DNA of 24,000 bases from Leptolyngbyaceae cyanobacterium RM1_1_2 (lineage in GTDB: Bacteria > Cyanobacteriota > Cyanobacteriia > Phormidesmidales > Phormidesmidaceae). How positions within the stretch are numbered: position 1 is the first letter of the stretch; every line of letters starts with the position of its first letter. Under the pieces are notes generated by a model. It did not search any database, was not told the DNA's origin, and saw only the letters and a list, made by a program, of their open reading frames with translations. Shown here one piece after another: positions 1 through 24,000 of this stretch. The stretch spans positions 36,291 to 60,290 of the forward strand of contig JAAUQI010000008.1 in the NCBI GenBank assembly GCA_012032345.1. The letters are read 5' to 3'. The position numbers and the translations under genes are program-made.

Positions 1-215
1 ACTATTGCGGTTTTCGTCAGGTTTGGAGTCGCGGCTATACCCTATATCAGCGCGGCATCAAGCTCAAAACAGAAACGGGCCTACAGGAAATTAGCCAGCT
101 TTCTCCCCTGGTAAAGACTTTGACTGATCCTGTACAGCGCGTTTGGCTAATCTATCCGGCTGAGGTAAAAACGCAGCTGCAGCAGCTAAGAGCCACCCTA
201 GAGCACCTGAGTTGA
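1..215 (+). CDS. 3' end of an unidentified protein-coding gene (partial; start lies upstream of the window)
   Basis: The frame with codons starting at position 3 is open from the window edge to TGA at 213-215 (...YCGFRQVWSRGYTLYQRGIKLKTETGLQEISQLSPLVKTLTDPVQRVWLIYPAEVKTQLQQLRATLEHLS*). I recognise no family. It overlaps the convergent gene 198..890 by 18 nt. Confidence 0.4.
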   Translation, partial: YCGFRQVWSRGYTLYQRGIKLKTETGLQEISQLSPLVKTLTDPVQRVWLIYPAEVKTQLQQLRATLEHLS

Positions 216-890
216 TCGCAGCGCTGCTAGATCTAGCGATTGCAGCTGCTGATAAGCCTGACTGACGGTACCTGCCTTGCGTAAAAAGCCTGTATTAGCC
301 CCTGGGCAGACATGCTGGAGCGTCTCTGGGCTAAAACTGTCGAGTATGTGCTGGAAGCTCAGTAACTGACGCAGCCAGTGGAAGGTTTTAGCAGAGCGCA
401 GAGGCTGCAACTCTCCGGTCGGCGTTGGCAGCAGATGGCGACCACTAAACAACAGCCCTCCATGCCGTTGGTGATAGAGACAGGCTGAGCCAGGAGAATG
501 CCCAGGTGACCAAAAGACTCGACTTAGCTGACTCAGGTCGTGGGCATGTTGAAAAGTTTCAGGCGAGAGGTTAGGCAGCAGATAAGCTTCTTGCTCTTGA
601 ATGAGCACCTGGCAGGGAAAAGCTTTAAGAATATCTCTGACGCTGGCGATCGCCCCCCGGTGAGTGATAAACAGCCAGCGAATACCCCCCTGAGCCGAGA
701 CAAAATCCTGGGTTGTTTCTGTCCAGGCAGGACAATCCACTAAAATATTGGCTGCTTTATTTGAGGAGTCATTTTCTACAATGAAGTAAGCAGTCCCTCC
801 CATCGTTTCCCGATTGGGTGGAAAAGCAAAAATGCCATCAAAAATCTGGCGGGGTGCTTTAGCTGATCTGTGAGGATTTGAAGCCATCAT
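198..890 (-). CDS. Metallo-beta-lactamase-fold protein with degenerate metal-binding motifs
   Basis: 230-aa ORF. MBL-fold landmarks appear in the right order: ILVDCP, then WLFITHRGAIA where HxHxDH normally sits, then SPGHSPGS (PGHTPG-type motif), then LLFSGRHLL (normally ..GD..). The His/Asp ligands of motif 2 and the GD Asp are replaced. Confidence 0.75.
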   Translation of the reverse strand: MMASNPHRSAKAPRQIFDGIFAFPPNRETMGGTAYFIVENDSSNKAANILVDCPAWTETTQDFVSAQGGIRWLFITHRGAIASVRDILKAFPCQVLIQEQEAYLLPNLSPETFQHAHDLSQLSRVFWSPGHSPGSACLYHQRHGGLLFSGRHLLPTPTGELQPLRSAKTFHWLRQLLSFQHILDSFSPETLQHVCPGANTGFLRKAGTVSQAYQQLQSLDLAALRSTQVL

Positions 891-7008: not shown

Positions 7009-8709
7009 ATGGCCGACCGGCTCATGGGCGACGTTTTCAGCGATATGCTATCGCCGCCTGGGTCAGATGTTGAATCGGATACTGAGTCGGATACTGAGGT
7101 AAAAAACCTGACGCCGCAGATAGCTGCTACAGCCAGCGCTTTCCCGCTGCAGATTAGTCTCGATCAGACTACTTACCTGGTGCGCGCCCGCCAGCCGCTG
7201 CTCCTACAGATTCAAATTTGCTCAGAACAGAGGCTGTATGCTGAACTGCCTGAGAGTGAGCTAACGCTGGTTTTGCGCAATCCTCAAACCTCAGAGCTAT
7301 TGGCTACGCTGAAGCGATCGCTACTATCGCAGTCTCTGCCTGCGCAGATAGAGGTTGAAGCCAAGCTGCCAGCAGCGGTCAAAACATACCTGATTTTGGG
7401 AGAACTTACACTACAGTCTCTAGACGAGCCGTTAATTCTGGCAGCTCAGGCGTTTACGGTAGCAGCTATGCTAGACGAGCTGATTGAGACGGTTGCCGAT
7501 CAAGGAGAATACCTGCAAGATCCAACCCAGTGGCATCTACCGCTAGAAGGAACAGCCGCTCAGGTGGCCGACGCTATGGGCCAGGTAGTCAGAAAAACGA
7601 TGCCTGTACAGCTGCCCAGCTCGGTCAGGCCAGACAAACCTGCTTTTTTACCTTCTACGGGCATGTTTTTGCCTCCTCAGATTCATAATTCACTGCTAGC
7701 TCCCCCTTCAGCCAGCAACCGTTCTCCAGTATTACCGTCACTGCCACCTATTACTCAGGCTGACTCTAGTCTTTCTACAGCGGCCTCAGACACTGCGGCG
7801 GCTATAGATATAGCTGCGCCTGAGGCTGACTTACCGCTTACAGCTGCGCCTGAGGCTGCTCTATCCCCTGATGAAAACCGATCAGAGCCAGCTTTAGCAG
7901 CCCCGCCTGAGGCATTAACCGTGGATCAGGCGGATGAAGACGCTGATTTCATTGCAGCAACTCAGCAAAATGACTTTGAAGCCAAAACATTTCTAGAGTT
8001 AAAAATAGCTGATACTGCGACAGCGCCTCTAGAAGACTCGGAAGTAGATGTAGCCTTTCAGTCTTTGAATTTGAAAGATCGCTTTTGGTCACGGCTGAGT
8101 GCTTTTGCTTTAGATGGTTACAAAGCAGCTCAGGAGATTCAGGCTGCAACTGAGCTAGGAGAAATGATTGCGAATCAGGCTGAGACAGCTGTGCCCAATG
8201 AGACGATCGCGCCGATTATGTCGCTTGGTGAAAAAGATTTTAGCCGCGAATTTGTAGTTTACGACGCAGCCGCTCAGACTGTTCAACTTGAAGATCAGCC
8301 TCCACCTGAGAGTCGAGCCGCTGCTGATGCGGCTGTCGAACTGCCCCCTGTTCCTATCCCAAAACTTAAAGTGCCTGTCGGCACCCTGATTGCTGGTGAG
8401 CTGATTTCTATAGAGGTGACGCTGCGGGCGACGCCTGAGCGTTTATGTGTCAAATTTTGGACTAGCGATTTGCAAACGCGGGCTTTAGTTGATAATCCTC
8501 GCTGGCTGATGTCTTTTGATCCAGACGGTCAGGGCAATATGTCTACGACTCTGCGTCTCACTGTGCCTCAGGGATGTTTAGAAGCCAGATTTGCGGCGAT
8601 CGCAGTTGACATTGTTAGTCAAAGAGAAAGCGAACGGGTGGTGATTGATCGCTCTATTTTGCCAGATGCTCTTCCAGAGCAGCCGCTAGACGAGTTTGAT
8701 TTGTTGTAG
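7009..8709 (+). CDS. Large acidic hypothetical protein (566 aa from the first ATG)
   Basis: Long ORF, very D/E/S/T/A/P-rich, with internal DNA repeats. Beta-rich blocks (FPLQISLDQTTYLVRARQPLLLQIQI..., LIAGELISIEVTLRATPERLCVKFW...TTLRLTVPQGCLEARFAAIAVD) are separated by apparently disordered acidic linkers. No family recognised. Confidence 0.7.
   Translation: MADRLMGDVFSDMLSPPGSDVESDTESDTEVKNLTPQIAATASAFPLQISLDQTTYLVRARQPLLLQIQICSEQRLYAELPESELTLVLRNPQTSELLATLKRSLLSQSLPAQIEVEAKLPAAVKTYLILGELTLQSLDEPLILAAQAFTVAAMLDELIETVADQGEYLQDPTQWHLPLEGTAAQVADAMGQVVRKTMPVQLPSSVRPDKPAFLPSTGMFLPPQIHNSLLAPPSASNRSPVLPSLPPITQADSSLSTAASDTAAAIDIAAPEADLPLTAAPEAALSPDENRSEPALAAPPEALTVDQADEDADFIAATQQNDFEAKTFLELKIADTATAPLEDSEVDVAFQSLNLKDRFWSRLSAFALDGYKAAQEIQAATELGEMIANQAETAVPNETIAPIMSLGEKDFSREFVVYDAAAQTVQLEDQPPPESRAAADAAVELPPVPIPKLKVPVGTLIAGELISIEVTLRATPERLCVKFWTSDLQTRALVDNPRWLMSFDPDGQGNMSTTLRLTVPQGCLEARFAAIAVDIVSQRESERVVIDRSILPDALPEQPLDEFDLL
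7075..7098 (+). repeat. (TCGGATACTGAG)x2 perfect 12-nt tandem duplication
   Basis: Read directly at 7075-7086 and 7087-7098. It encodes SDTE-SDTE in the acidic N-terminus of ORF 7009..8709. Confidence 0.9.
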
Positions 8710-9048: not shown

Positions 9049-9081
9049 AAAAAAGCACCCCCCAATTGGGGGGCACTTTTT
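9049..9081. terminator. Bidirectional intrinsic terminator between convergent psaI and psbJ
   Basis: AAAAAA-GCA-CCCCCC-AATT-GGGGGG-CAC-TTTTT. This is a perfect 6-bp G/C stem with an AATT loop, flanked by an A-run on the left and a T-run on the right, so a U-tract follows the stem on either strand. Confidence 0.7.
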
Positions 9082-9112
9082 ACTTAGCTAGGAGAAACGG
9101 CTGACGCCGCTA

Positions 9113-9232
9113 CTACATAGCGGAACCGACTCCGGCATAGGCTCCATAAAAGAAAAGACCAACGACAACAAGTACGCCTGTACCTGCAATTGTCGCAACG
9201 ATCCATAAAGGAATTTTTCCACCTTGGCCCAC
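9113..9232 (-). CDS. psbJ: Photosystem II protein PsbJ (39 aa; 40 aa if the adjacent GTG at 9235 is used)
   Basis: Hand translation of the minus strand gives (V)[38 protein letters not shown]. It matches the PsbJ consensus (..GG.IPLW.VAT.AG.GV....[14 protein letters not shown].). GGAGG lies 6 nt upstream of the GTG start. The track ORF 9088..9336 is a different frame. Confidence 0.9.
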
Positions 9233-9289
9233 CACACACCTCCAAAAGAATTAGTTAAGCTAAAGCACCGATACAAAAGAGGGAATTTT

Positions 9290-9409
9290 CTAGTTGAAGA
9301 AGTAGCTAGAAAAAAGCAGGCCAAGAACAAATACAAGTAACAAGCCCAAAAAGAGCGAAGTCCGGTTTAGCTCTACTGGCTGTTTATTAGGATTCTGTTT
9401 GCGTTCCAT
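9290..9409 (-). CDS. psbL: Photosystem II protein PsbL (39 aa)
   Basis: Hand translation gives [39 protein letters not shown], the canonical PsbL sequence pattern. AGGAG lies 7 nt upstream, overlapping the psbF stop. Confidence 0.93.
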
Positions 9410-9418
9410 GATGTTCTC

Positions 9419-9553
9419 CTATCGTTGAACAAACTGCATTGCCGCAATCGCTCCCAGAAAGAAAACGGCGGGAACCGCGAGTGCATGAACTGATAGCCAT
9501 CTCACCGTAAAGATGGGATAAGTTACTGGCTCGTTGGAAGTATTGCTATTCAT
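9419..9553 (-). CDS. psbF: Cytochrome b559 beta subunit (PsbF, 44 aa)
   Basis: Hand translation gives [44 protein letters not shown]. It has the conserved [11 protein letters not shown] heme-ligand region of PsbF. Confidence 0.93.
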
Positions 9554-9593
9554 TTGCGAAAACCTGATTTACTAAAGAAAACGAAAGTGAAAG

Positions 9594-9842
9594 CTATTGG
9601 TTTTGGAACTGCTGAATTTCCTGGCGGGCATCGTAGCGATCGTCAACAATCGGCAGTTCCATGCGGTTGTTGGGGTAGTACTCGTTAGGACGAGGCGTAC
9701 CAAATACATCGTAAGCCAGCCCTGTGCTGACAAATAACCAGCCAGCAACAAAGAGCGCCGGAATCGTGATGCTGTGGATAACCCAGTAGCGAATACTGGT
9801 GATAATGTCTGAAAATGGACGTTCTCCAGTTGAACCTGCCAT
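9594..9842 (-). CDS. psbE: Cytochrome b559 alpha subunit (PsbE, 82 aa)
   Basis: Track [58 protein letters not shown].., the canonical PsbE sequence. GAGGAG lies about 8 nt upstream of the ATG. Confidence 0.97.
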
Positions 9843-9884
9843 CGATTTTTCTCCTCTAACAGCAATTTATCTATGAACTATTCC

Positions 9885-9913
9885 ATCATACGGAACGTGC
9901 TTTATCCTCACAA
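9885..9913 (-). promoter_or_regulatory. Putative sigma70-type promoter of psbEFLJ
   Basis: The minus strand reads TTGTGA-17 nt-TATGAT (-35 at 9913-9908, -10 at 9890-9885) in the ycf48/psbE intergenic region. It lies about 43 nt upstream of the psbE ATG. This is sequence-pattern evidence only. Confidence 0.35.
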
Positions 9914-9950
9914 GAAATAGGAATAAAGCAGGTCTCTAATCGCTCAGAAA

Positions 9951-11009
9951 CTAAGCTGCTTCTACCGTGTTATCGTACTTTAGCAAAATACCGCGCTGTC
10001 CTAGAACGAATCCCCTATCCTCTGATAAAAAGATGATGCGATAAAAATTAGAGGGGACATCCTCTAGCTGTCTATCCTTTAGCCAGGTTTTGCCACCGTC
10101 TAGACTACATAGCAGGTTGCCACCGCCGCCTGCAACCCAAACTTCGTCGCGGGTACGATAGGCCATATCCAATAGGCCCCAGCTAGTAGAAAATTCAGGG
10201 TTGATCGGATCTTGCCAATCTTCGACATCTGCTGAAGCCGAAAACTGGAGCTGACCGCCACGAGCAATCAACCAGAGGTCATTTTGCTGATTGAACCCCA
10301 TGTTTTGCAAACGCTTGGAGTTTTCACGGTTGTGTAGCTGCCAACTACGCTGTCCCGGTTGCCAGGTAGAGTAGAAGTTACCGCGTGAAGAAACGGCAAC
10401 GTAGCGACCATCCCGAGAACGAGCCATATTGCGGACAACGCCGACCGCACCTTCAACCAGAGCCTTCCAGTTTCGCCCCCCGTTCTGAGTGACGTAGATA
10501 GCTCCAATATCTGTTGCCATCTCGGCTGAGTCTGGCCCTAGGGCAGTAATCAAAAATGGGCTACCGGGGAGCTGTTCGCTCAGCGATACCCTAGCCCAGG
10601 TTGCACCTTCATCATTGGTATGAAGTAGCAGGTTAGGCTGACCTGTGATCCACCCCTCACTGCCTTCAAAGCTCACCGAGGTCAGAGTGTAACGCTTCTC
10701 GTCTAGATCTAGATGACGAGGTTCCCAGGTGTCTCCTCGATCATGGCTTTCCAAAAGTGTGGAGTTACTGCCCACTAGCCAACCGTGACTGCCATCTGCC
10801 GTAAATGCAATATCTGAAAAAGTATTTTCAGTGGAAATTTGTAAAACCTGCCAGGGATTTTTTTCCAGAGAGGGCAAAAAAAATCCAGAACAGCCAACGG
10901 TCAGTAAAGCGATCGCCACGATCGCAACCAGCTTCTTAGCAGACCCCAGATTAAACTGCATTGCCATGAGAGGTAAGTATATTAATGTCGAACAACAAGC
11001 TGATTTCAA
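9951..11009 (-). CDS. ycf48: Photosystem II assembly factor Ycf48/HCF136 (beta-propeller lipoprotein)
   Basis: 352-aa ORF. It has a signal peptide with lipobox LLTVGCSG and repeated propeller blades with ..D.G.TW.. motifs (SHDRGDTWEP, TNDEGATWARV, TQNGGRNWKAL, SLDGGKTWLKD). It lies between rubA and psbEFLJ, as is typical of cyanobacteria. The true start may be the internal ATG at 10967 or 10961. Confidence 0.9.
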   Translation of the reverse strand: MKSACCSTLIYLPLMAMQFNLGSAKKLVAIVAIALLTVGCSGFFLPSLEKNPWQVLQISTENTFSDIAFTADGSHGWLVGSNSTLLESHDRGDTWEPRHLDLDEKRYTLTSVSFEGSEGWITGQPNLLLHTNDEGATWARVSLSEQLPGSPFLITALGPDSAEMATDIGAIYVTQNGGRNWKALVEGAVGVVRNMARSRDGRYVAVSSRGNFYSTWQPGQRSWQLHNRENSKRLQNMGFNQQNDLWLIARGGQLQFSASADVEDWQDPINPEFSTSWGLLDMAYRTRDEVWVAGGGGNLLCSLDGGKTWLKDRQLEDVPSNFYRIIFLSEDRGFVLGQRGILLKYDNTVEAA

Positions 11010-11032
11010 AAAATGCTGCCTGAATCAGCAGC

Positions 11033-11431
11033 TTAACGTAAGCCATAAAGGCTTAGAAAGAACAAAAAGCCGAGTCCTAAAGCTCCAAAAATGAGTATAT
11101 TCTTTTGCCCCGGCGTTAGCGTGTTGACCCCAAGGCCGTAGCGTAAATTTTCTTCAAAACCTGAAGGTTTACCCGTAGGCCCAATATTTTCAAACTGAGG
11201 CTTGCGGGCACCGCACACAGGGCAGCGCCAGCCAGCAGGAAGCTCTGAGAAAGGCGTTTTAGCTGCAACCTCCGATTTATTGTCTCCCTTATCAGGTTCA
11301 TAAACGTAGCCACAGGAACGACATTCGTAGCGGTCTAGCTGCTTTTGCTCGGCAGTTGGGGGGGGGCTACCCTGACTTTGCTGGAGGTCAGAAGCATCAG
11401 CACTAACATTGACTTCCGGCTCGGTATTCAT
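11033..11431 (-). CDS. rubA: Membrane-anchored rubredoxin RubA
   Basis: 132 aa. It has the rubredoxin Cys pairs CRSCGYVY...WRCPVCGA and a C-terminal TM helix (ILIFGALGLGFLFFLSLYGL). It sits immediately upstream of ycf48. Confidence 0.92.
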   Translation of the reverse strand: MNTEPEVNVSADASDLQQSQGSPPPTAEQKQLDRYECRSCGYVYEPDKGDNKSEVAAKTPFSELPAGWRCPVCGARKPQFENIGPTGKPSGFEENLRYGLGVNTLTPGQKNILIFGALGLGFLFFLSLYGLR

Positions 11432-11742: not shown

Positions 11743-12105
11743 GTGTTTGTCTTAACCGGTTACGAATATTTTCTAGGATTTTTGATTATTTGCGGCCTGA
11801 TTCCCGTGCTAGCGCTGAGCGCTTCTAGGTTATTGAGACCTGTTAGCCGGGGACCAGTTCGCAGAACAACTTATGAATCTGGCATGGAGCCGATAGGTGG
11901 AGCCTGGATTCAGTTCAACATCCGCTACTACATGTTTGCCCTGGTTTTTGTCATCTTCGATGTAGAAACAGTTTTTCTGTACCCCTGGGCGGTCGCATTT
12001 AGCCGGTTGGGTCTGCTGGCTTTCATAGAAGCCCTGATTTTTATCGCAATCTTAGTAATCGGCCTGGTTTATGCATGGCGTAAAGGAGCCTTAGAATGGT
12101 CATGA
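11743..12105 (+). CDS. ndhC: NAD(P)H-quinone oxidoreductase (NDH-1) subunit 3, NdhC
   Basis: 120 aa from a GTG start: [33 protein letters not shown]...YESGMEP.G.AW.QF.IRYY.FAL.FV.FDVE..FLYPWA, the canonical NdhC/NuoA pattern. Confidence 0.95.
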
Positions 12106-12842
12106 ATTCAAGTACTTTATCTTCCAGTCCGCTGCTCAAGTCAGATGAGCGGATCATGAATCCGGCAGGGCCGCCGACGGTGACTCAGGATCTCTCTGAG
12201 AACGTTGTTTTGACGACGTTAGACGACCTGTATAACTGGACAAGGCTGTCCAGCCTGTTTCCGCTGCTATACGGTACAGCCTGCTGTTTTATTGAGTTTG
12301 CAGCGCTAATCGGTTCGCGCTTTGACTTCGATCGCTTTGGGCTTTTGCCGCGTTCTAGTCCGCGTCAGGCTGACTTGATCATTACGGCAGGAACAGTCAC
12401 CATGAAGATGGCACCTGCTCTAGTTAGGCTGTATGAGCAAATGCCTGACCCCAAATATGTGATCGCCATGGGGGCCTGTACCATTACAGGCGGTATGTTC
12501 AGTACTGATTCTCCCAGCGCCGTGCGGGGTGTAGATAAGCTAATTCCGGTGGATGTCTACATCCCTGGCTGTCCGCCGCGACCCGAGGCTATCATTGATG
12601 CCATTATCAAGCTGCGCAAAAAAGTCGCTAATGAGTCTATTCAAGAGCGTGGCTATACTCAGCAAACCCATCGTTACTACACCACTGCCCACAATCTGAA
12701 GTCAGTAGATCCGATTTTGACCGGGCAGTATTTGCGCTCTGATACGCGACAGGCACCCCCCAAAGAACTGATGCAGGCTGTCGGTGCTCCTGTAGAAGAT
12801 TTGGCTCAGATGCAGGCAGAAAAGGAAGCTACCCATGAGTGA
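12096..12842 (+). CDS. ndhK: NDH-1 subunit NdhK (NuoB-like, Fe-S cluster N2)
   Basis: 248 aa. It contains [23 protein letters not shown] and [11 protein letters not shown] (the NuoB Cys ligands). The start overlaps the ndhC stop by 10 nt (alternative ATG at 12102). Confidence 0.95.
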
Positions 12843-13368
12843 TGAAGAAAAGCAGTCCGCTGAAGTCTCTGAGGCAGCTGGAGAGATCGTTGAAGCTGGC
12901 AGGGTTTCTAAGTGGCTCACTGAGCAGGGCTTTGACCATGAGGTTTTAGAGCCTGATCATCTCGGTGTTGAGATGATTAAGGTGGCTCCAGAGTTTTTGA
13001 TTCCGTTTTCAACGGCACTTTACGCCTACGGCTTTAACTACCTGCAGTGTCAAGGGGCCTACGATATTGGGCCAGGCGACGGGCTGGTTAGCTTCTATCA
13101 CTTGATCAAGCTGGAAGACAGTGGCGATCGCCCTGAAGAGGTACGTCTCAAAGTGTTTTTGCCGCGTGAAAATCCGAAACTGCCCTCGGTTTACTGGATT
13201 TGGAAATCTGCCGACTGGCAAGAGCGCGAGAGCTATGACATGTATGGCATTGTCTATGAAGGGCACCCGAATCTAAAACGGCTGCTGATGCCAGAGGACT
13301 GGGTGGGCTGGCCATTGCGCAAAGACTACATTTCGCCTGACTTTTATGAGCTTCAGGATGCCTACTAA
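12835..13368 (+). CDS. ndhJ: NDH-1 subunit NdhJ (NuoC-like)
   Basis: 177 aa. The C-terminal half has the canonical NdhJ pattern: [36 protein letters not shown]. The start overlaps the ndhK stop by 8 nt. Confidence 0.95.
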
Positions 13369-13399
13369 GGCTGTTGTAGACTGTGTTTGGTTACCCGCA

Positions 13400-13595
13400 A
13401 TTAAAACTATCCAGAAATGAGTAAGGCGTTGTTCAACCTGATTTTCAACTCAGTGTATGAGCAATCGTACTAGAAATGACTCAATGTTTCGCAGAATAGC
13501 TCGCTTGCTCATGCCTTCTCATCAACTAGCAGCAAAGCCTCTTCATAGCGACCCTCCAAGAGGCTTTGCCTCAAGTCAACCAGTTCCTGAGTCAT
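13400..13595 (-). pseudogene. Decayed remnant of a small helical protein gene (frameshift plus in-frame stop)
   Basis: The minus strand reads ATG(13595) MTQELVDLRQSLLEGRYEEALLLVDEKA* (TGA at 13509-13511). The sense continues after a frame change as MSKRAILRNIESFLVRLLIH*, then in that same frame past the TGA as VENQVEQRLTHFW. Coherent helical peptide text thus spans two frames and one stop. It resembles small cyanobacterial DUF29-like proteins from memory only; the family is not verified. Confidence 0.35.
13532..13569. repeat. Perfect 12-bp inverted repeat (hairpin with 14-nt loop)
   Basis: GCAAAGCCTCTT (13532-13543) pairs with AAGAGGCTTTGC (13558-13569). It lies about 165 nt downstream of the ndhJ stop, inside the gene remnant. 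No U-tract follows on either strand. Confidence 0.85.
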
Positions 13596-13757
13596 AGCGT
13601 TATCCACCGTGACGCAAATTGATTCTATCGTGGCTTTTACAGTGCTCCTGGCTACCGCTTACTTAATAGAGACAAGCGGTTAAAAAACTAGAATCTGGGC
13701 CTGTAGCCTGAAAACACCCGCTCAGCCGATATTCCCAGGCTAAAAAAACAGAAGATA

Positions 13758-14141
13758 TTAGCTATCCGATTGGTTGAGCTGGATAATATCCCGACGAATC
13801 GCCTCAAGCTCCTGGGTCAGGATCTTGATTTCAGTCTGTAAGCTTACCTCGACTGTGGGCATATTAACGGTGCTGACGGGGGTGTGTGTAGGGCGAGATT
13901 GACTAAAGGGGCCAGGTATTTGCGCCATCATGCTGTCAACCATTTGACGCGCTTCTTGTTCTGCCACCGTGCCCTTGCTTTCTAAATCTTCGCTGAGACG
14001 ATTCCAGTCACCATTGATTTCAGAAAACCTTTCGCTTTGCCTGGCCGGATCTTGAACTGCTTCGACTAAAGATGCAGTGGCTCCTAAAGCAATACGAAAA
14101 CCTTTTTGCAGCAGTTCGGTGAAGCTATCAGAGTTCATCAT
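13758..14141 (-). CDS. Hypothetical helical protein (127 aa), weakly phasin-like N-terminus
   Basis: Intact ORF with an ATG start. The N-terminus (FTELLQKGFRIALGATASLVEAVQD) resembles phasin/COG3937-type helical proteins from memory. The C-terminus is coiled-coil-like (LQTEIKILTQELEAIRRDIIQL). Confidence 0.6.
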   Translation of the reverse strand: MMNSDSFTELLQKGFRIALGATASLVEAVQDPARQSERFSEINGDWNRLSEDLESKGTVAEQEARQMVDSMMAQIPGPFSQSRPTHTPVSTVNMPTVEVSLQTEIKILTQELEAIRRDIIQLNQSDS

Positions 14142-14325
14142 AAAGTTAATATGCCAAAAAACAACCGTGTTTAGTGGGCAACGCCCACCCTACCCGTAGA
14201 GGTTTCTAAATCTAGGGGCTGGTCTGATTCAGATACTGGTTCTCAACGAGAGTACAGACCATTGCCTCGATTGTATATTGCTTCCTTCAGAGTTGCTTGT
14301 AGAGTTGCTTATGGCCCTGTCTATA

Positions 14326-14676
14326 TCAGACGATTTGATCAAGATGCTGGTTGAGATCTTCTAAGACCCGAGTCAGTTCGGCTTCTGTGGTCAAGCGAAT
14401 GCGATCGTCTCGTAGGGTAATCAGCAGCTTGGCGGCAAAAGGAGTCGGCCAAATATTGGGGTTACAAAAAACTTCCAAAAAAACGTCGCCTGTGTGCTGA
14501 TATTCGAGGGATTTTTCGGGCTTGGGCTTGCTGCTTGCGCCTGCTTTAGCCGTAGCGATCGCCTTTAGGCTAGCCATTAGCTCAGCCAAAGCCGCCTCCA
14601 GCTTACGGGCCGCTTCTGCCGGGAAGTTAAAGCGAACCGAGCCTTCAACTAAGTTCAGCGTCATCTGTGTAGTCAT
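14326..14676 (-). CDS. Hypothetical protein (116 aa)
   Basis: Intact ORF on the same strand, starting 58 nt downstream of the FAD-oxidoreductase stop. No motif recognised. Confidence 0.55.
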   Translation of the reverse strand: MTTQMTLNLVEGSVRFNFPAEAARKLEAALAELMASLKAIATAKAGASSKPKPEKSLEYQHTGDVFLEVFCNPNIWPTPFAAKLLITLRDDRIRLTTEAELTRVLEDLNQHLDQIV

Positions 14677-14734
14677 GGTTCAGCTCAGTGTAACTGGCTT
14701 ATATTTTGCCAATAGCCGTTGTTATTCACCTAGC

Positions 14735-16756
14735 TTACCAGTCAGAGCGCAGGCCCTGATGCTTGAGATGAGCCTGTAATTCAGCCATCCGGCCTTTGGC
14801 CACAATATCTGCTGCTTTCAGCTCAGGTTCAGCCGTGCTAACCAGCCAGCCAGCCGTTGCCCCTGCTGCTGCCCCTACGCTCCATTCTCCATAGTGAACC
14901 CGGGTCATGGCATTGACGATGTGGCTTACGGCGATCGCTTTCCCCCCCACTAGTAAATTGTCAACACTCTGTGGAATCAGGCTCTCTAGCGGAATTTGAA
15001 CTGGCCGCACCACAAATTCTTTGACGCTGGCCCCCGAAGCTTCTCCGGTTTCCTCTTTGTTGCGATAGCGACAGCCATGAATATCGACGTCGTAGTGAGT
15101 CAGGCCCACTGCCGTAGCGCTAAAATTGCGGCCTACAGATAAATCTTCTCGAATGTCTGACTCTAACAGCATAAACATGGGCTGTTGATAAGCTGTACGA
15201 CCTAGAATGCGACGGCCTTCACGGATATAGGGATACATGCTGAGGCCAGAATAGGTGCCCAAGGGCGAGTCTGGCCCTGCTAGGTGGGCTAGGGGCAGGC
15301 TTGGCAAAGACTGGTTCTTGATCAGCCATTCTGAAAAGAGCAGAGCGTGGTTTTCTCCTTCTCTAAGAGAATCCAGGTCAAGTCCGCCCAGCCAGTTTTG
15401 CCGCTGTTTGGACGTTTCAATTTTTTCGTCAGTCAAAATCAGCGGCGGATCCATCCAAACCCAGTCGTTGCCAAGGTTCCAGTTAATTAAAGTAATGTCG
15501 CCTGGGTTAGAAGGCCCCTTCATCGGGTCGCTGGGAGCCGTGCTGAGAATACGACGGTAGTTAAACAAGCTGCCGCGATCGAACATGGGAAAGCCTTCCA
15601 TATCAAACCAGCGCTGATGCTCTTCACGGGAGTAGCCGGGCTGTACCCGCTCCAGCATTTTTAGGCTACCGCCGCCGTCATCGAAAATAGCTAGGGCAAA
15701 CGGAAACGTATAGCCTTGAGTGCAATCGGGATTGCCCTGCTCGGGCGCATTCACCTCTTTGGTCAAAGCCCGCGAGTCCGACCCTGTCATGTGGGGAATG
15801 CCTGCCCAGCCGATCAGCTCTCCGGTATCAGTGGCATCAATAACAATCATTTCTTTGCCTGGAGGAGCCTGTAAACGAATCGGTACTTTTTCAAAGGTGT
15901 CATCAGCTGACCAGGAATACCAGCTCACCAGCTCTCGTGAGAGCAGGCCGTGAGGCACGTAGTCTAGCGCCCTGGGAATACGCTTTACCGCATAGACGGC
16001 GATTATGTTGCGCCCGGTAATGTCAAAAGCAGCTCCCTTAAAGGCGATGGAGGTTCCCCAGCGACTGCCGGGGGCTTTTGATGCGGCAGTTTGCAGCCAG
16101 CTTTGAGCTGCTGCTGCTCCAGCTTTGGGCGCAAAGCAGAGTTCGCCAACCCAGCAGCTATTGAGATCGCTGACGCGCCGAGGAGAGATTTCTGCCCAGA
16201 TCGGTAGCTCTACTACCTGCTGGGCAATCAGGTTCTTGAAAGCATTCCAGCTGGCCGAAAAGTTACGCCGCGCTCGCATAGAGCGAGACTCGTCAATAGC
16301 AGAGACGCCCTGAGAGCTAATTTGCCCCCCCAGCCAAGGCGTCAGCTCGATTAGGCAGGTACGTGCCCCTGAATTCATAGCATGGCTAGCAGCGGCGACG
16401 CCCCCTAGAGATCCCCCAACTACCACTACCTCACACTCCCAAACTTCTTGAGCTACGGGCAGCGGTGAAAGCTGAGGCCGTCCGTTGGCCCCCATCAGCT
16501 CTGAAATTTTTGAGCTAACTTGTTGTCCTTGCAGGGTTTCCTGGAGCTGAGTTCGCAGCGGCAGGGAAAACTCGGGCTGACTGCGAGCGGCAGTGAACGC
16601 CTCTAGCATAGAGAAAGCGATCGCCAGCATCAAAACAGTGGAGATAGAAAAGCGTCCCCAGCGCTTCATCTGAGTTAAGCGCTTTTGCCGCCGCAGGTGC
16701 GATCGCCTGCGGCGGGCTAATTTTCGTTGAGCTGGCGTGAGAGACCGCTGATGCAT
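14735..16756 (-). CDS. FAD-dependent oxidoreductase (large, with signal/anchor-bearing N-terminus)
   Basis: 673-aa ORF. It has the dinucleotide-binding fingerprint VVVVGGSLGGVAAASHA...LIE after a hydrophobic segment (FSISTVLMLAIAFSMLEAFTAARS). Its size and layout resemble the pfam FAD_oxidored-type family (from memory). The first 29 codons are Arg/Lys-rich, so the start may instead be the ATG at 16669 (MKRWGRFSIS...). Confidence 0.85.
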   Translation of the reverse strand: MHQRSLTPAQRKLARRRRSHLRRQKRLTQMKRWGRFSISTVLMLAIAFSMLEAFTAARSQPEFSLPLRTQLQETLQGQQVSSKISELMGANGRPQLSPLPVAQEVWECEVVVVGGSLGGVAAASHAMNSGARTCLIELTPWLGGQISSQGVSAIDESRSMRARRNFSASWNAFKNLIAQQVVELPIWAEISPRRVSDLNSCWVGELCFAPKAGAAAAQSWLQTAASKAPGSRWGTSIAFKGAAFDITGRNIIAVYAVKRIPRALDYVPHGLLSRELVSWYSWSADDTFEKVPIRLQAPPGKEMIVIDATDTGELIGWAGIPHMTGSDSRALTKEVNAPEQGNPDCTQGYTFPFALAIFDDGGGSLKMLERVQPGYSREEHQRWFDMEGFPMFDRGSLFNYRRILSTAPSDPMKGPSNPGDITLINWNLGNDWVWMDPPLILTDEKIETSKQRQNWLGGLDLDSLREGENHALLFSEWLIKNQSLPSLPLAHLAGPDSPLGTYSGLSMYPYIREGRRILGRTAYQQPMFMLLESDIREDLSVGRNFSATAVGLTHYDVDIHGCRYRNKEETGEASGASVKEFVVRPVQIPLESLIPQSVDNLLVGGKAIAVSHIVNAMTRVHYGEWSVGAAAGATAGWLVSTAEPELKAADIVAKGRMAELQAHLKHQGLRSDW

Positions 16757-16865
16757 CTAGGCTCACTAGAAAGTGACTATCGAAAGCTAGAAATGGCTAA
16801 TGTTGGGAGTTGCTCACTAGTTGTACCAAAATCTGACAATCTTGCCCATGCTTTTACAGAATTCC

Positions 16866-16898
16866 ATTAAAAAAGAGGCATCAATAGACACCTCTTTT
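16866..16898 (-). terminator. Intrinsic terminator of the ctaCDE operon
   Basis: The minus strand reads AAAAGAGG-12 nt loop-CCTCTTTTTTAATGG. This is an 8-bp perfect stem followed by six T, about 90 nt downstream of the ctaE stop. Confidence 0.6.
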
Positions 16899-16986
16899 GA
16901 TCTAAAACTCAGTGGAGCTACTTCAACTGCTCTACAAGCGAGGCCGACGCTGCTCCGGTAGCCTGTCAAAACGGACTAGAGGCAGA

Positions 16987-17610
16987 CTAGAGAATGTAGA
17001 GCAGCAAGAAGAGAATAATCCAGACCACATCCACAAAGTGCCAGTAAAGCTCTGCTGCCTCAATGCCAAAATATTCTTCTTTAGAGTAGTGGTTGGCCTG
17101 CCGCGATCGCCACAGCACCGCCAGCATCAACAAAATACCCACAAAAACGTGCAGGCCGTGAAAGCCTGTCAGCGCGTAGAAGGTGCTAGCAAAGAGATTA
17201 GTCGTCAGGCCAAATTCCAGGTGACTGTACTCATAGAGCTGACCGACCAGGAAAACAGCGCCCATCGCCGCCGTAATCCCAAACCAGCGCTGCATAGCAG
17301 CCACGTCATTTTTCTTGATAGCGCTATCGGCCTGATGAATCACAAAGCTGCTCGAAATCAGGATTAAGGTGTTTACCCCAGGCAGCAGCACCTCCAGCTC
17401 TGGCGTTCCAGCGGGGGGCCACTCAGGGGCCACGAGGCGGAAGGCCAGGTAGGCTGAGAACAAGCCTGCAAAAATCATGCTCTCAGCGACTAAAAACAAA
17501 ATCAGGCCAAAAACGCGGTGATCGGGATGTTCTTCAGGATGGGCAGCGCTTTCCTGGGCTACGCCCATCATGGCATCGGATGTGTCAACGGCTGAACCTT
17601 GCATAAGCAA
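16987..17610 (-). CDS. ctaE: Cytochrome c oxidase subunit III
   Basis: 207 aa, polytopic. The conserved C-terminal region is FYALTGFHGLHVFVGILLM...E....YWHFVDVVWI.LF..LY. Confidence 0.95.
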   Translation of the reverse strand: MLMQGSAVDTSDAMMGVAQESAAHPEEHPDHRVFGLILFLVAESMIFAGLFSAYLAFRLVAPEWPPAGTPELEVLLPGVNTLILISSSFVIHQADSAIKKNDVAAMQRWFGITAAMGAVFLVGQLYEYSHLEFGLTTNLFASTFYALTGFHGLHVFVGILLMLAVLWRSRQANHYSKEEYFGIEAAELYWHFVDVVWIILFLLLYIL

Positions 17611-17662
17611 ATCTAAAAGATGAGGGACTCAAACTGTGAGAAGACGCAGGGGCATCTGTGAA

Positions 17663-19333
17663 TCAGGCTGGGACTTCTTCGCCATAAAGCTCTGGCGGAT
17701 CGCGGTCGGGAATATAGCCTAGACCGTAATCGTAAGGCCCCGTCTTGAGTACAGGCAATTCCTCAAAGTTTTCAATCATGGGCGGCGAGGTTGTCTGCCA
17801 TTCTAACGTCAGTGCCCGCCAAGGGTTAGCCGGGGCTTCTGGCCCATAAAGCCAGCTCCAGACCGCATTGATGATGAAGGGAATGGTAGAGACAGCCAGA
17901 ATGTAAGAACCCACCGTCGCCACTACATTGAGATCGGTAAACTGGGGATCATAAAGCGCAATCCGGCGGTTCATACCGCGCATACCCAGCTCGTGCATCG
18001 GCATAAAGGTCAGGTTCATACCGACAAAAGTGAGGACAAAGTGAATCCGTCCCCAAAACTCATTCATCATTCGCCCCGTCATTTTGGGGAACCAGTGATA
18101 AACCGCCATGTAGACGCCAAAGACGGCTCCGCCAAACAGCACGTAGTGGAAGTGGGCAACGACGAAATAGGTATCATGAACGTGAATGTCGAAGGGCACT
18201 GCCGCCAGCATAACGCCGCTAATGCCGCCAATCAGGAAGGTGGCAATGAAGCCTAAAGCAAAGAGCATGGCGCTGGTATAGGCAATTTTGCCCCGCCACA
18301 GCGTCGCTACCCAGCCAAAAACCTTGACTCCAGTGGGCACTGCAATCACCATCGTGGTGATCATAAAGAACATTCGCATCCAGGGGGGTGTACCGCTGGT
18401 AAACATATGGTGCGCCCAGACAATCAGGCCCAAAAAGCTAATCGCCAGACTAGAGTAGGCGATCGCCCGGTAGCCAAAAATCGGCTTGCGAGCATGAACC
18501 GGGATCACATCAGAAATAGCCCCAAACAGCGGCAGTACAAAAATGTAAACCGCCGGGTGAGAGTAAAACCAGAACATATGCTGGTAGACAATAGGGTTAC
18601 CGCCGCCTGTCGGGTTAAAGAAATTCGTCCCCGCCAGCAGGTCAAAGGCCAGCAAAATCAGAGCACCAGCTAGCACTGGCGTACTGACCAAGATCAAAAA
18701 CGAGGTCGCTAACATAGACCAGCAAAACAGCGGCATACTGGTCAGCGGCATACTGGGTACCCGCATCCGTAAAATCGTGGTGAGAAAATTAATTGCGCCC
18801 AGAATGGAGGCCGTCCCCCCCACCAAAATGCTCATAATCCAGATGCCTTCTCCTAACTGTCCGGTGGTCAGGCTCAGGGGCGGATAAGATGTCCAGCCCG
18901 CTGAGGGCGGCTCAAAAAAGTAGCTGCTCAGCAGCAAAATACCAGAGGGCGGAATCATCCAAAAGGCGATCGCATTGAGCTTGGGAAAGGCCATGTCTCT
19001 GGCCCCAATCATTAGCGGGATCAGATAGTTAGCTAGCCCAGCCCCCGCTGGCACAATCCACAAAAACAGCATCACCGTGCCGTGCAGAGTGAGCAGGCCG
19101 TTGTAAACATCAGGGGTCACAAAGTCAGGATCGGGGGTAGCCAGCTCAGTCCGCATAGCGGTGGCAAAGGCTCCGCCAATCATGTAGAACACAAAGGCCG
19201 TCACAAGATACTGAATGCCGATGACCTTGTGGTCGGTACAAAAGGTGAAATAGTCTGTCCACTTGCGGGTTTCACCATGACCATGAGGCGGTGGTGAAGA
19301 CGCTGGCGTTGCTTTTAGTTCTGTCTGTGTCAT
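17663..19333 (-). CDS. ctaD: Cytochrome c oxidase subunit I (heme a / heme a3-CuB)
   Basis: 556 aa. It contains GGGNPIVYQHMFWFYSHPAVYI, WAHHMFTSG and HDTYFVVAHFHYVLFGG, the canonical heme-copper oxidase subunit I motifs. Confidence 0.97.
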   Translation of the reverse strand: MTQTELKATPASSPPPHGHGETRKWTDYFTFCTDHKVIGIQYLVTAFVFYMIGGAFATAMRTELATPDPDFVTPDVYNGLLTLHGTVMLFLWIVPAGAGLANYLIPLMIGARDMAFPKLNAIAFWMIPPSGILLLSSYFFEPPSAGWTSYPPLSLTTGQLGEGIWIMSILVGGTASILGAINFLTTILRMRVPSMPLTSMPLFCWSMLATSFLILVSTPVLAGALILLAFDLLAGTNFFNPTGGGNPIVYQHMFWFYSHPAVYIFVLPLFGAISDVIPVHARKPIFGYRAIAYSSLAISFLGLIVWAHHMFTSGTPPWMRMFFMITTMVIAVPTGVKVFGWVATLWRGKIAYTSAMLFALGFIATFLIGGISGVMLAAVPFDIHVHDTYFVVAHFHYVLFGGAVFGVYMAVYHWFPKMTGRMMNEFWGRIHFVLTFVGMNLTFMPMHELGMRGMNRRIALYDPQFTDLNVVATVGSYILAVSTIPFIINAVWSWLYGPEAPANPWRALTLEWQTTSPPMIENFEELPVLKTGPYDYGLGYIPDRDPPELYGEEVPA

Positions 19334-19392
19334 AGACGTTTTGAGGGGGTATTAATCTTGCTTTATCTGATTTACCTGATCTATTTGACAGG

Positions 19393-20408
19393 CTAGCGGA
19401 TATCTGCTGAAGCCACAGCGGCCTGATGGTGGGCGTGCAGGTGCGACAAGGCAGCGGCATCTACATCAAGGTCTAGCGGCTGGGCTAAGGCGCTCAGGTA
19501 GTCAGCATCGCTGCGATCGCTATTGGGTACTAGCGCGATCGCTTCATTGCTGGTGCTTTGAGCGACTTGTGACTGTACCCAAGCACTATAGTCTTCAGCT
19601 GAGTCTACAATCAGTTGCGTTTTCATTGCGCCATGATAAGGCCCACACAGCTCAGCACAAATGACGGGATAGGTGCCGACCGGGTCGGTGTAAAGGCTAG
19701 CTCAGTCTCGCTGCCGGGGATGACATCCTGCTTGATCCTGAACTCTGGCAGCCAAAAAGCATGAAGCACGTCTTGTGCCTGCATGTTGAGCCTGACCGAG
19801 TTGTCTACAGGGACATGCAGCTCCCCTGAAACCACGCCGCTGTCAGGATAAGTAAAGACAAAGGCATACTGCACCGCCATCACGTTCACCGATACGTCCG
19901 GCGATTGCCCCTGTAGGTCAGGGCTAGAGCCGATCCCCAGATTAGAAGCTAGTTTTGCCCCCAATCTACTAGGCATGCCCAGCATCGGGAAGCTATTTTC
20001 GTCTCCGGCATAGGCAACTTCAACCGTCTGCTGAGTGCCTTCAACCATCGGTGTCAGACCGCCTAGCCGAGTGTAGACATCAAAGCTGTAAACCGAGATA
20101 CCAAAGACAACCACGGCGGGGATCGCCGTCCAGAGAATTTCTAGCGGCACGTTACCTTCAATATGCTCCCCATCGCTCTCATCTCCGTCAGTGCGGCGAA
20201 AGCGAATGGCAGCTACGACGAGCGCTCCTTCAACCACGAGAAACAACCCCACCGAAATCGTCATCATGGTGTTGAACAGACCGTCAACTAATTCTGCTTC
20301 CGCTGAGGCAGCAACAGGGAGCAGCCCATGATTTTGTCCATACCAAAGGCTAACAAGCGTGATAAAAATGCCTGCTAGCATCGTCAGAATTGAGCTTGGA
20401 ATCTTCAC
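19393..20408 (-). pseudogene. ctaC: Cytochrome c oxidase subunit II, interrupted by a frameshift (two track ORFs, 19623..20408 and 19393..19626)
   Basis: The N-terminal ORF has two TM helices and the first CuA His (DVLHAFWLPEFRIKQDVIPG) but ends in nonsense sequence. The other frame, open only from 19701 downward, reads DPVGTYPVICAELCGPYHGAMKTQLIVDSAEDYSAWV, the CuA loop CxExCGxxHxxM. The frame change lies within about 19678-19701. Confidence 0.9.
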
Positions 20409-21169
20409 AGTTGTAAACTAAAACCCCTTAAGCGTTAGGAATCCGAAAGAATATGTAAGGCCGAAGCTATCTTTGTTGCAAAATATACAAACTCGGTTGG
20501 AAACTTCTAGAGAGTTCCCCTGATGCCAGCACTGTAGAGGAAAGTCTCTAGATGAGAAACTTGCTGGCTCAAAGCAGATCGGAGCTTGGATATCAATCAC
20601 ACGTGGGCAAACAATACCTCACTTCTAGTCAATGGTGTTTTGCTTTTCTCTTACTACGTTAAAACAGCGATCCAAAATAGACAGAAATTGAAGGTATATA
20701 TTGGGCTATCTTTGCTTTTTCTTAAGAAAGCCACGTATACTTGCATATCTGATCTTGAAGCTGCTGTGAGATAAATTTTACTCTTCTTAACACTGATTAA
20801 CGCTGAAATGTTGAGCCAGGATTTAGGAACCCCTCAGTCTGCTTGGTTTGCGTTAGGGTGGCAGGGTTAGAAGCCAAGCTAAAAAGCTAAACTTTTAACC
20901 CACATATTTAGATTTTCCTCTTTAAAGTGGGAAGTAGGCAGAATTTACTCTGAGCAAAGGTAATTTCTTTACAGCCTCAATGAAGGAGCGATGTCTCATC
21001 CTTGAAATCGAAAACGTTTCTGTGGATTTACCAGCTTTTAGGGATTTTGCCTCTAGATCTAAAGTAGAACCATAGAATCCTGCTGATTCGGCTACAGTCT
21101 CAACAAGTCTCTATACGTTTTACCCAGTGTTGCTCAAGCCAGACAACTTTTTTTATACGCCCTTTTCTG

Positions 21170-22159
21170 TTGCCCCTGAACGAGGCAGGCATGACTAACT
21201 TCACGACAAACGCTGACCTTTCTACCGCTCGCTTGCTCAAAACTCGAACTTGCCCGACTCAATCGCAGGTCTGGATCCGTCGCCTGATTTGGAAAATGGC
21301 GATCGCAACCCTAGCCCTGATGGCCGTTGGCAGTGCCACTCGGGTCATGAATGCGGGGTTGGCCTGCCCAGATTGGCCGCTGTGCTACGGACAGCTCGTG
21401 CCTCACCAGCAGATGAACCTGCAGGTGTTTCTAGAATGGTTTCATCGTCTAGATGCGGCTCTGATTGGCTGCATGGCGATCGCCCTAATGGGCCTATGCC
21501 TATGGTTTCGACGTCAGCTACCGACTTGGCTACCCTGGGGTGCAGCAGTAGCTTTATTGCTAATTGTATTTCAGGGCGTTTTGGGAGGGCTGACGGTTAC
21601 TCAGCTGCTGCGATTTGACATCGTCACGGCTCACCTGGGTACGGCCCTGCTCTTTTTTATAGCGCTGCTGATTTTGGGCACGGCCCTGCTGCCCTATCAG
21701 GCCACTGGAACCGTTGGTAAACTCCCCTGGATTAGCCTGATTGCGGCTGTCTTGGTATATCTACAGAGCTTACTGGGGGGGCTGGTAGCTTCTCGCTGGG
21801 CAGCTCATCAGTGTTTTGGCTTGGATCAGCTTTGCCGCGTCATGAACAGCCATATCTTTGGCGTAGTGCCGCCAACCGTCATGACATTATCGCTAATGTG
21901 GCTAGCTTGGCGCACTCCAGCCCTCAATGGTAGGCTGCGACGGCTTGCCAATGTTGCGGGAGCGCTGGTGCTCTTACAGATATTGCTGGGAACGGCAACT
22001 TTTTGGCTACATCTACAGGTTGAGCCGCTAACGGTTTTACATCAGGTGATTGGCGCAGCCCTGCTGGGCACGCTGGTCTGTTTTACAGTTTTGGCTTGGC
22101 GAGATCGGGCGATCGCGTCTCAGCTCAACCCTTCTGAGCCTAAACCGACTGCGGTTTAG
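21170..22159 (+). CDS. ctaA: Heme A synthase (COX15/CtaA family)
   Basis: 329-aa polytopic ORF with GLACPDWPLCYG and EWFHRLDA motifs plus a second His-containing half. The track start is TTG 21170; the ATG at 21191 (MTNFTTN...) is more likely. Confidence 0.9.
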   Translation: MPLNEAGMTNFTTNADLSTARLLKTRTCPTQSQVWIRRLIWKMAIATLALMAVGSATRVMNAGLACPDWPLCYGQLVPHQQMNLQVFLEWFHRLDAALIGCMAIALMGLCLWFRRQLPTWLPWGAAVALLLIVFQGVLGGLTVTQLLRFDIVTAHLGTALLFFIALLILGTALLPYQATGTVGKLPWISLIAAVLVYLQSLLGGLVASRWAAHQCFGLDQLCRVMNSHIFGVVPPTVMTLSLMWLAWRTPALNGRLRRLANVAGALVLLQILLGTATFWLHLQVEPLTVLHQVIGAALLGTLVCFTVLAWRDRAIASQLNPSEPKPTAV

Positions 22160-22244
22160 TAGCCGCCATTTTCTAAAGCCGCGCGATCGCACCTGAAAAC
22201 ACGCCCACAGCTTTTCGCTGAATCAACTTAACAGGAATGACTTC

Positions 22245-23222
22245 ATGCAAGATTTGACCGCTTGGACTAACGCCATCCGCCACGAAACTCTGGGGCAGGT
22301 CCTGAAGAGCTACTGGCAGCTCACAAAACCTAGAATTATTCCGCTGTTGCTGATTGAGACGGCTGCCAGCATGTGGGTAGCAGCTCACGGGCAGATTGAT
22401 CCCTGGTTGCTGCTGGTAACGCTTCTGAGTGGGGCGTTGGCGGCAGCTTCAGCCCAGGTAATTAACTGCATCTACGACCAGGATATTGACTACGACATGG
22501 AGCGCACCCGCCATCGTCCCATCCCTTCAGGTCGGGTTCAGGTACGCGACGCGCTGCTGTTTGCGGTGGTTTTGGCGGTGCTTTCGTTCACCCTGCTCAC
22601 CACCTTTGCTAACCTGCTGAGTGCCTGTCTAGCACTGTCAGGCATTGTGGTTTACGTGCTGGTCTACACTCACTGGCTCAAGCGATCGTCTTCGCTCAAC
22701 ATTGTCATTGGCGGCGCAGCAGGAGCCATTCCACCTTTAGTCGGCTGGGCGGCTGTAACTGGGAGCCTGAGCTGGACAGCCTGGGTCATCTTTGCCATTG
22801 TGTTTGTGTGGACACCGCCTCATTTCTGGGGACTGGCGATGGTAATTCGAGATGACTATGCCAAGGTCGGCATTCCTATGCTGCCGGTTGTAGCGGGGAA
22901 TGAAGCCACCGCTAAGCAAATCTGGCTCTACACTCTGCTGCTGGTACCCACTACCCTGCTGCTGGTGTATCCCCTCCAGTCTGCTGGTCTGCTCTATGGT
23001 GTGTTGGCTGTCTATCTAGGCGGTCTGTTTTTGAAGAAAGCCTGGCAGCTGCGCCAGGCTCCTGAAGATTTGACCCTGGCCCGATCGCTGTTTAAGTTCT
23101 CGATCTTCTACATGATGCTGCTCTCTGTCGGCCTGATTGTGGATAGTCTACCGATTACCCATCAGCTAGTCGCTTTTGGCCGTGAGCAGATAATGGCTGT
23201 AGCAACGGCTCTGACCCTCTAG
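22245..23222 (+). CDS. ctaB: Protoheme IX farnesyltransferase (heme O synthase)
   Basis: 325 aa. It has the UbiA-family motif [23 protein letters not shown], the second motif in ...[24 protein letters not shown], and multiple TM helices. Confidence 0.95.
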
Positions 23223-23306
23223 TTCTAGAGTCGGCTTGGGTACTCACTCATCTGGACGCAACTTCGATAGTATTAGGTTAATAGAAGTTAAGACTTGCCC
23301 CTACCT

Positions 23307-24000
23307 ATGTCGCCTGCGGTTAAGATTCAAGACCTTCAAAAGCGCTATGGCTCCCTCGTAGCGGTCAAGAACGTCTCTTTGACCATTGAGTCAGGGGAGA
23401 TCTTTGGGCTTTTAGGCCCCAACGGTGCGGGCAAAACCACTACTATCCGCTGTCTCTGCACGTTGACTAAGCCTGATGCTGGCGTCTTGGAGGTAAACGG
23501 CACTTCGGTTTTAGAGCGACCTCGTCTAGCCCGTCAGTATCTAGGCTATATCGCTCAAGAGGTGGCTCTAGATAAGGTGCTGACCGGGCGAGAGCTGCTG
23601 CAGCTACAGGCGGCACTTTATCACATGCCAGCCAAGGTTGCAAAAGCCCGTATCGCTCAGATGCTATCGCTGCTGGAGATTGAAGCCTACGCCGACCAAA
23701 AAACAGGCACCTATTCGGGAGGTTTGCGGAAGCGACTGGATCTAGCGGCTGGCCTGCTGCATCAGCCAGATGTACTAGTGCTAGACGAACCTACCGCAGG
23801 ACTTGATATTGAAAGCCGCTCTGCCGTGTGGCAGTTTTTGCGGCAGCTTAGAGCTGCGGGCACGACCGTGCTGATTACTAGTCACTATCTCGAAGAAATA
23901 GACGCCCTAGCCGACCGCGTAGCCATTATCGATCGCGGTGAAGTCATTGCCACAGGTACTCCCAGCGATCTGAAGAATAAAGTTGGCGGCGATCGCATTA
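23307..24000 (+). CDS. ABC transporter ATP-binding protein (ABC-2/DrrA-like), 3' end beyond the window
   Basis: Not in the track because the window ends before a stop. Hand translation from ATG 23307 gives MSPAVKIQDLQKRYGSLVAVKNVSLTIESGEIFGLLGPNGAGKTTTIRCL.. (Walker A). It also has YSGGLRKRLDLA (ABC signature) and VLVLDEPTAGLD (Walker B). Confidence 0.9.
   Translation, partial: MSPAVKIQDLQKRYGSLVAVKNVSLTIESGEIFGLLGPNGAGKTTTIRCLCTLTKPDAGVLEVNGTSVLERPRLARQYLGYIAQEVALDKVLTGRELLQLQAALYHMPAKVAKARIAQMLSLLEIEAYADQKTGTYSGGLRKRLDLAAGLLHQPDVLVLDEPTAGLDIESRSAVWQFLRQLRAAGTTVLITSHYLEEIDALADRVAIIDRGEVIATGTPSDLKNKVGGDRI

Follow-up and report, generated by a model that had tools for sequence, protein, structure and literature searches.

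A single-base deletion that splits ctaC in a cyanobacterial stromatolite genome is probably a homopolymer sequencing or assembly error

The window, by which we mean the whole 24,000-nucleotide stretch of DNA analysed here, belongs to RM1_1_2, a metagenome-assembled genome (MAG) from South African stromatolites whose bin was assigned by GTDB-Tk to the family Phormidesmiaceae (bioRxiv 10.1101/818625). It contains an ordinary cyanobacterial aa3-type oxidase cluster, in which ctaC, ctaD and ctaE are accompanied by a divergent ctaA–ctaB pair (Table 1). The original prediction, made from the sequence, had placed ctaC beside these four genes, and Pfam searches confirmed the neighbours, with COX1, COX3, COX15-CtaA and UbiA matches all present around ctaC. 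The gene that immediately follows ctaE, also on the minus strand, encodes a FAD-dependent oxidoreductase of 673 aa (PF12831; 14735-16756), which is 644 aa long in the NCBI model; the two versions differ only in the choice of start.

The ctaC gene, on the minus strand, was found in two pieces, a 261-aa open reading frame (ORF; 19623..20408) and a frame carrying the CuA site (19393..19680), as the result of a 1-base deletion. The 261-aa ORF begins with GTG and encodes the COX2 transmembrane domain (PF02790; E=1.4e-18, residues 22-111 in a Pfam search) and the DVLHAFW segment, whereas its C-terminal tail is the out-of-frame sequence ...FTPTRSAPIPSFVLSCVGLIMAQ*. Its match to PF00116 (COX2) stops at profile position 94 of 120 in the same kind of search, with the remainder of the domain located in the -1 frame. 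That frame, which includes a 77-aa ORF (19393..19626), reads ...DPVGTYPVICAELCGPYHGAMKTQLIV... / ...DPVGTYPVICAELCGPYHGAMKTQLIVDSAEDYSAWV..., and its sole ATG (19626) is the codon of the CuA methionine. The CuA frame is offset by -1 from the frame of the 261-aa ORF, which fits a 1-nt deletion. No single polypeptide encoded by the window as deposited holds the complete periplasmic cupredoxin domain (PF00116), and neither ORF is by itself able to make a working subunit II. Repairing the gene by hand gave a 338-aa product in which PF00116 was matched to position 114 of 120. Thus, every element of the predicted split, with the CuA loop out of reach, was found again, including the TGA that closes the CuA frame upstream and its lone ATG. 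The repair did restore a single ORF, as had been expected, although its length had been put at about 337 aa.

The NCBI accession run for the window has one number per intact ORF (NJN01831 for the FAD oxidoreductase, NJN01833 for ctaD and NJN01835 for ctaB) and no number for ctaC, which suggests that GenBank either regards ctaC as a pseudogene or carries no annotation for it. Exact protein look-up tied the window to RM1_1_2, with NJN01833.1 for ctaD, NJN01835.1 for ctaB, NJN01831.1 for the FAD oxidoreductase, NJN01825.1 for rubredoxin and NJN01828.1 for ndhJ; look-up of the truncated products of 252 aa and 261 aa returned no entry in the protein collection.

Table 1. Features of the cta cluster in the window, with the parts of the split ctaC gene
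Feature	Position	Strand	Remarks
ctaC codons 1-243	19680..20408	-	GTG start to ACC CGG (T242 R243); two TM helices and the beginning of the cupredoxin domain with its first CuA His (DVLHAFW)
Out-of-frame run-on of the ctaC 5' part	ends at TGA 19623-19625	-	translation of the window
Lesion	19680..19681	-	G run 2 long (CC on the plus strand) versus 3 in all three other assemblies
ctaC codons 244-338 and stop	19393..19680	-	-1 frame, VGTYPVICAELCGPYHGAMKTQ...ADIR*; CuA ligands Cys, Glu, Cys, His, Met
TGA closing the CuA frame upstream	19702..19704	-	bounds any switch of frame on the 5' side
ctaD (subunit I, 556 aa)	17663..19333	-	intact, directly downstream of ctaC; PF00115 on the identical Logan gene; NJN01833.1
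ctaE (subunit III)	16987..17610	-	intact; PF00510, E=2.5e-37
ctaA (heme A synthase, COX15 family)	21170..22159	+	intact, divergent from ctaC; PF02628, E=5e-32
ctaB (protoheme IX farnesyltransferase)	22245..23222	+	intact; PF01040; NJN01835.1

We compared the window with three other assemblies of the same strain, namely the sister MAGs SL_1_1 (GCA_012032635.1) and SM1_1_3 (GCA_012031865.1) and the Logan reassembly of run SRR11470444, and all three carry GGG at the ctaC site. A 17.8-kb Logan contig aligned with window positions 11910-24000 over 12,092 bp with no mismatches and one gap, which lies in ctaC. Similarly, SL_1_1 showed no mismatches over 11.7 kb, and SM1_1_3 showed none from window position 18650 to 24000, with GGG at 19680. 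Two of the three (SL_1_1, as NJO10646.1, and Logan) encode CtaC intact, as a 338-aa protein that does not differ from the repaired window sequence; the best database match to the repaired protein was the Logan protein P0001, at 100% identity, and P0139 is likewise identical. In SM1_1_3, ctaC is split into 173 and 165 aa by a private deletion of its own, CCCC to CCC at window position 19908. The 3' part of ctaC in the window (19393..19680) is 100% identical to the intact alleles and shows no decay. A scan of metagenome contigs for either ctaC allele gave no matches in JGI metagenomes.

The alignment with the otherwise identical contig placed the missing base in a GGG run at window positions 19680-19681, where the minus strand reads ACC CGG [G]TC GGC, the bracketed G being the one that is absent. 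The lesion thus leaves a base run 1 nt shorter, GG in place of GGG: the Logan contig reads GACCCGGGTC where the window reads GACCCGGTC. A palindrome check showed that the intact GGG sits within a perfect 14-bp palindrome, CCGACCCGGGTCGG. Together, the -1 offset and the single gap bear out the 1-nt deletion that the original prediction had claimed, and the missing base falls inside the interval to which the frame switch had been confined (19678-19701). The join proposed there, ACC CGG TC/GGC ACC, was right in placing the deletion nearby and off by up to 2 nt as to the actual site. An extra base that restores a single ORF of about 337 aa had been named as the sign of an assembly error; very nearly this was found, with other assemblies taking the place of raw reads.

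The SM1_1_3 contig (JAAUTA010000094.1) has a further peculiarity. When its positions 5520-6400 (locus L083) were compared with window positions 17762-18650, the contig was seen to switch inside ctaD to a copy that is about 77% identical. Of the 205 mismatches, 136 fall at codon position 3, and there are paired gaps as well. Beyond the switch it carries different genes, a 209-aa COX3 followed by ORFs of 199 aa and 478 aa. Either the assembly is a chimera joined through the conserved ctaD, or the contig passes here into another organism or a second cta operon.

A shift is not a feature of the family. The segment from the histidine to the CuA site lies in one frame at all 83 other related loci that we fetched, and none of them requires a shift. 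The loci L083, L084 and L085, like all 83 non-window loci, have the full CuA ligand set, H...CxExCxxxHxxM, in a single frame (HAFW...CAELCGPYHGAM); in four related loci HAFW is replaced by HALW, HSLW, HAMW or HAIW, all in frame. The nearest named relatives in a scan of GTDB representative contigs, Almyronema epifaneia (84%) and Sphaerothrix gracilis (83%), are both unshifted.

Across the 24 kb, the same-strain assemblies differ at 12 single-base indel sites and at no substitutions, with the left half of the window compared through further contigs covering that half (Table 2). At 11 of the 12, a single-base run is longer or shorter, the exception being site 10308. Seven sites could be compared in three or more assemblies, and at each of these a single assembly carries the odd allele. 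For the five from 8595 to 11358, the window and SL_1_1 give the only coverage, and there, as elsewhere, the correct allele was judged by ORF integrity. Nine of the 11 sites other than the ctaC lesion are private to SL_1_1, and most of these break or alter ORFs in that assembly: a 230-aa ORF (198..890), thrC, ycf48, rubA, ndhJ and the FAD oxidoreductase are intact in the window and not in SL_1_1, and the 566-aa ORF (7009..8709) is shortened to 544 aa. Sites 4481 and 9068 are apparently intergenic. Wherever the comparison can be made (ndhJ, thrC, ycf48, rubA, the FAD oxidoreductase and ctaC), the odd allele breaks or alters an ORF, and the window keeps the ORF-preserving allele at all eight other ORF-comparable sites. 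It is not credible that real divergence would yield a dozen indels that mostly disrupt or alter ORFs together with zero substitutions; technical length noise in base runs explains the pattern directly.

Table 2. Single-base differences between the window and other assemblies of the same strain
Window position	Window	Other assembly
716	T3	T4 (SL_1_1)
3604	GG	G (SL_1_1)
4481	T4	T5 (Logan; private to the Logan contig)
8595	GG	G (SL_1_1)
9068	G6	G5 (SL_1_1)
10308	no T	extra T (SL_1_1)
10858	T7	T8 (SL_1_1)
11358	G9	G8 (SL_1_1)
13131	C3	C2 (SL_1_1)
16401	C5	C4 (SL_1_1)
19680	C2	C3 (SL_1_1, SM1_1_3, Logan)
19908	C4	C3 (SM1_1_3; private)

The HIP1 palindrome, GCGATCGC, has 29 copies in the 24 kb (for example at 3605, 8596 and 13124), and three of the 12 indel sites, none of them the ctaC lesion, touch a copy, although the copies with 2 nt on either side take up only 1.45% of positions. 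Together with the palindromic setting of the ctaC lesion, these sites suggest that the error is context dependent and occurs at palindromes rather than at random.

Several parts of the left half of the window can be described from the same comparisons. Between 8709 and 11431, no ORF of at least 100 aa lies in the stretch of small photosystem genes. Gene calls from SL_1_1, moved to this interval by coordinate transfer from locus L086, gave a PsaI-like 36-aa gene, psbJ, psbL, psbF and psbE, which are followed by ycf48 (9951..11009; PF14870, E=1e-132) and the rubredoxin gene rubA (11033..11431). The cluster is intact in the window, and we take it to be the familiar cyanobacterial rubA-ycf48-psbEFLJ cluster. 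Six ORFs of 230, 171, 263, 184, 161 and 566 aa, located in 198-890, 2670-3185 and 4897-8709, had no Pfam match at E<=0.001, and the 566-aa protein carries no more than a hypothetical label in all sister MAGs.

The history of these assemblies is documented. The libraries were run on the 'IonTorrent Ion P1.1.17 Chip'; SPAdes 3.12.0 was used for assembly, with the options --iontorrent --only-assembler, and Autometa for binning; in the bin names, RM1 stands for Cape Recife Middle 1, SL for Schoenmakerskop Lower and SM1 for Schoenmakerskop Middle 1 (bioRxiv 10.1101/818625). Bin coverage was 9.82x for RM1_1_2, 5.33x for SL_1_1, 2.64x for SM1_1_3 and 2.86x for RM2_2_21 (Table S3 of bioRxiv 10.1101/818625), and the average nucleotide identity (ANI) between SL_1_1 and RM1_1_2 was 99.89% (Table S2 of the same study). 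The authors state that --iontorrent enables IonHammer homopolymer correction (bioRxiv 10.1101/818625). Given --only-assembler, this correction may never have been run. The latter option skips the read-correction stage of SPAdes, and assembly without read correction would account for the many indels in the deposited MAGs. Consistent with an effect of coverage, the indel load rises as coverage falls, from one site judged to be an error in the window to about 10 per 24 kb in SL_1_1.

Because three assemblies of the same strain carry the missing base and the data are low-coverage Ion Torrent reads, we conclude that the ctaC frameshift is a homopolymer sequencing or assembly error and reflects neither loss of the oxidase nor recoding, a reading to which we give a probability of roughly 0.87. 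One G would have been under-called in the GGG run while the metagenome reads were assembled into RM1_1_2, and the under-call would then have passed into the consensus of the MAG. What the organism carries is almost certainly a normal ctaC of 338 aa, encoding two TM helices and a cupredoxin domain with a full CuA site, at the head of a ctaCDE operon beside ctaA and ctaB, and we infer that the RM1 reads themselves support GGG. Two observations weigh against an error. At about 10x coverage and with a run of three, a wrong consensus needs a systematic error or locally low coverage, as opposed to independent read errors; and neither of the other two MAGs is as good as the window, which has the ORF-preserving allele at the eight other comparable sites. 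Of the three causes that the original prediction had left open, the assembly indel is thus the one favoured by the three GGG assemblies and by the low-coverage platform, whereas oxidase loss and recoding are unsupported.

The origin of run SRR11470444 bears on this conclusion. The run most likely represents the RM1 sample, given that coverage is highest for RM1 and that no other Logan run gave long contigs of the strain. If so, the same reads yield GGG with another assembler. If it comes from SL or SM1 instead, the reassembly removes every covered private indel of that MAG, which would prove such indels to be assembly artefacts; and any other origin would make the run a fourth independent case in which the allele is intact. 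Each possible origin either favours an artefact or leaves that interpretation unweakened.

An unlikely explanation is that the 1-nt deletion is real in the RM1 population at Cape Recife Middle 1, so that the ctaCDE aa3 oxidase has been lost there and another terminal oxidase may serve. The deletion is, after all, present in the deposited sequence, the preserved ORFs at eight other comparable sites show that the window is not a generally poor assembly, and short homopolymers do mutate by slippage. However, three assemblies of the same clone, with no SNPs over up to 24 kb, have GGG, and the same dataset demonstrably produces such differences by error, including the second ctaC break in SM1_1_3, on a platform that is prone to homopolymer errors. 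Nor is there decay in the 3' part of ctaC or in ctaD, ctaE, ctaA or ctaB. If GG were nevertheless real in RM1, a free-living stromatolite cyanobacterium would have inactivated its ctaCDE aa3 oxidase very recently, while clonal populations a few kilometres away keep theirs.

It is far less probable that GG and GGG coexist in the mat, through heterogeneity within the sample or phase variation, and that the assembler took the minor allele. The sample is a natural mat community, and if SRR11470444 is RM1, then the same reads gave GGG with another assembler; but SNP-level diversity is zero in four assemblies from three or four sites, and read-level length noise on the Ion Torrent is a simpler cause of mixed calls. 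Slipped-strand phase variation is not known from runs as short as 3 nt. Least probable of all, and rejected, is recoding, in which full-length CtaC would be restored either by transcriptional slippage or by programmed -1 frameshifting of the ribosome at CGG_G: a -1 slip after CGG, with the G re-read as GTC, would give the intact protein exactly (...FTPTRVGTYPVIC...) and the shift site lies inside the palindrome, but CTA GCC TTT ACA CCG ACC CGG T, the stretch from the upstream TGA to the shift site, contains no slippery heptamer of the form X XXY YYZ. Nor is the local RNA more stably folded than its shuffled versions (minimum free energy -29.1 kcal/mol versus a mean of -30.7 for the shuffles; z=0.44). 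RNA polymerase slippage needs a run much longer than GG, and the shift is required by none of the 83 related loci, with an unshifted gene in the strain itself.

With a homopolymer error as the preferred explanation, the biological novelty of the ctaC frameshift is nil, and its importance lies in how such records are used. Taken at face value, the deposited sequence describes an abundant stromatolite cyanobacterium without a functional aa3 oxidase and would distort metabolic reconstruction. In the Ion Torrent MAGs of this study, single-base indels range from about 1 per 2.4 kb (SL_1_1, 5.3x) to 1 per 24 kb (RM1_1_2, 9.8x), and they break core genes (ndhJ, ycf48, rubA, thrC and ctaC). Calls of gene presence, absence or pseudogenization from these MAGs are therefore unsafe and should be checked against sister bins or raw reads.

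Three known systems come closest to the ctaC case. The CtaC of Almyronema epifaneia S1 (P0002) is 85% identical to the repaired protein over 99% of its length, has the same Pfam architecture (COX2_TM and COX2) and shares the FTPTRVGTYPVICAELCGPYHGAM segment with window ctaC; relative to cyanobacterial CtaC, the window record alone lacks one G at codon 244, which puts its CuA loop out of frame. Programmed -1 frameshifting, as in dnaX and the IS3-family transposases, resembles the ctaC case in that the frames overlap and a -1 fusion gives a sensible full-length protein, but ctaC has no slippery heptamer, stimulatory structure or conserved shift, and an unshifted gene is present in the same strain. 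Compared with a typical Ion Torrent homopolymer error, the ctaC run is short (3 nt) and the bin is covered at about 10x, so the error must be context dependent. In other respects, the ctaC lesion is like the Ion Torrent homopolymer errors of low-coverage MAGs: a single-base run differs in length in one assembly only, unaccompanied by substitutions, in a dataset in which such changes are commoner at lower coverage and for which the platform and the assembler are documented.
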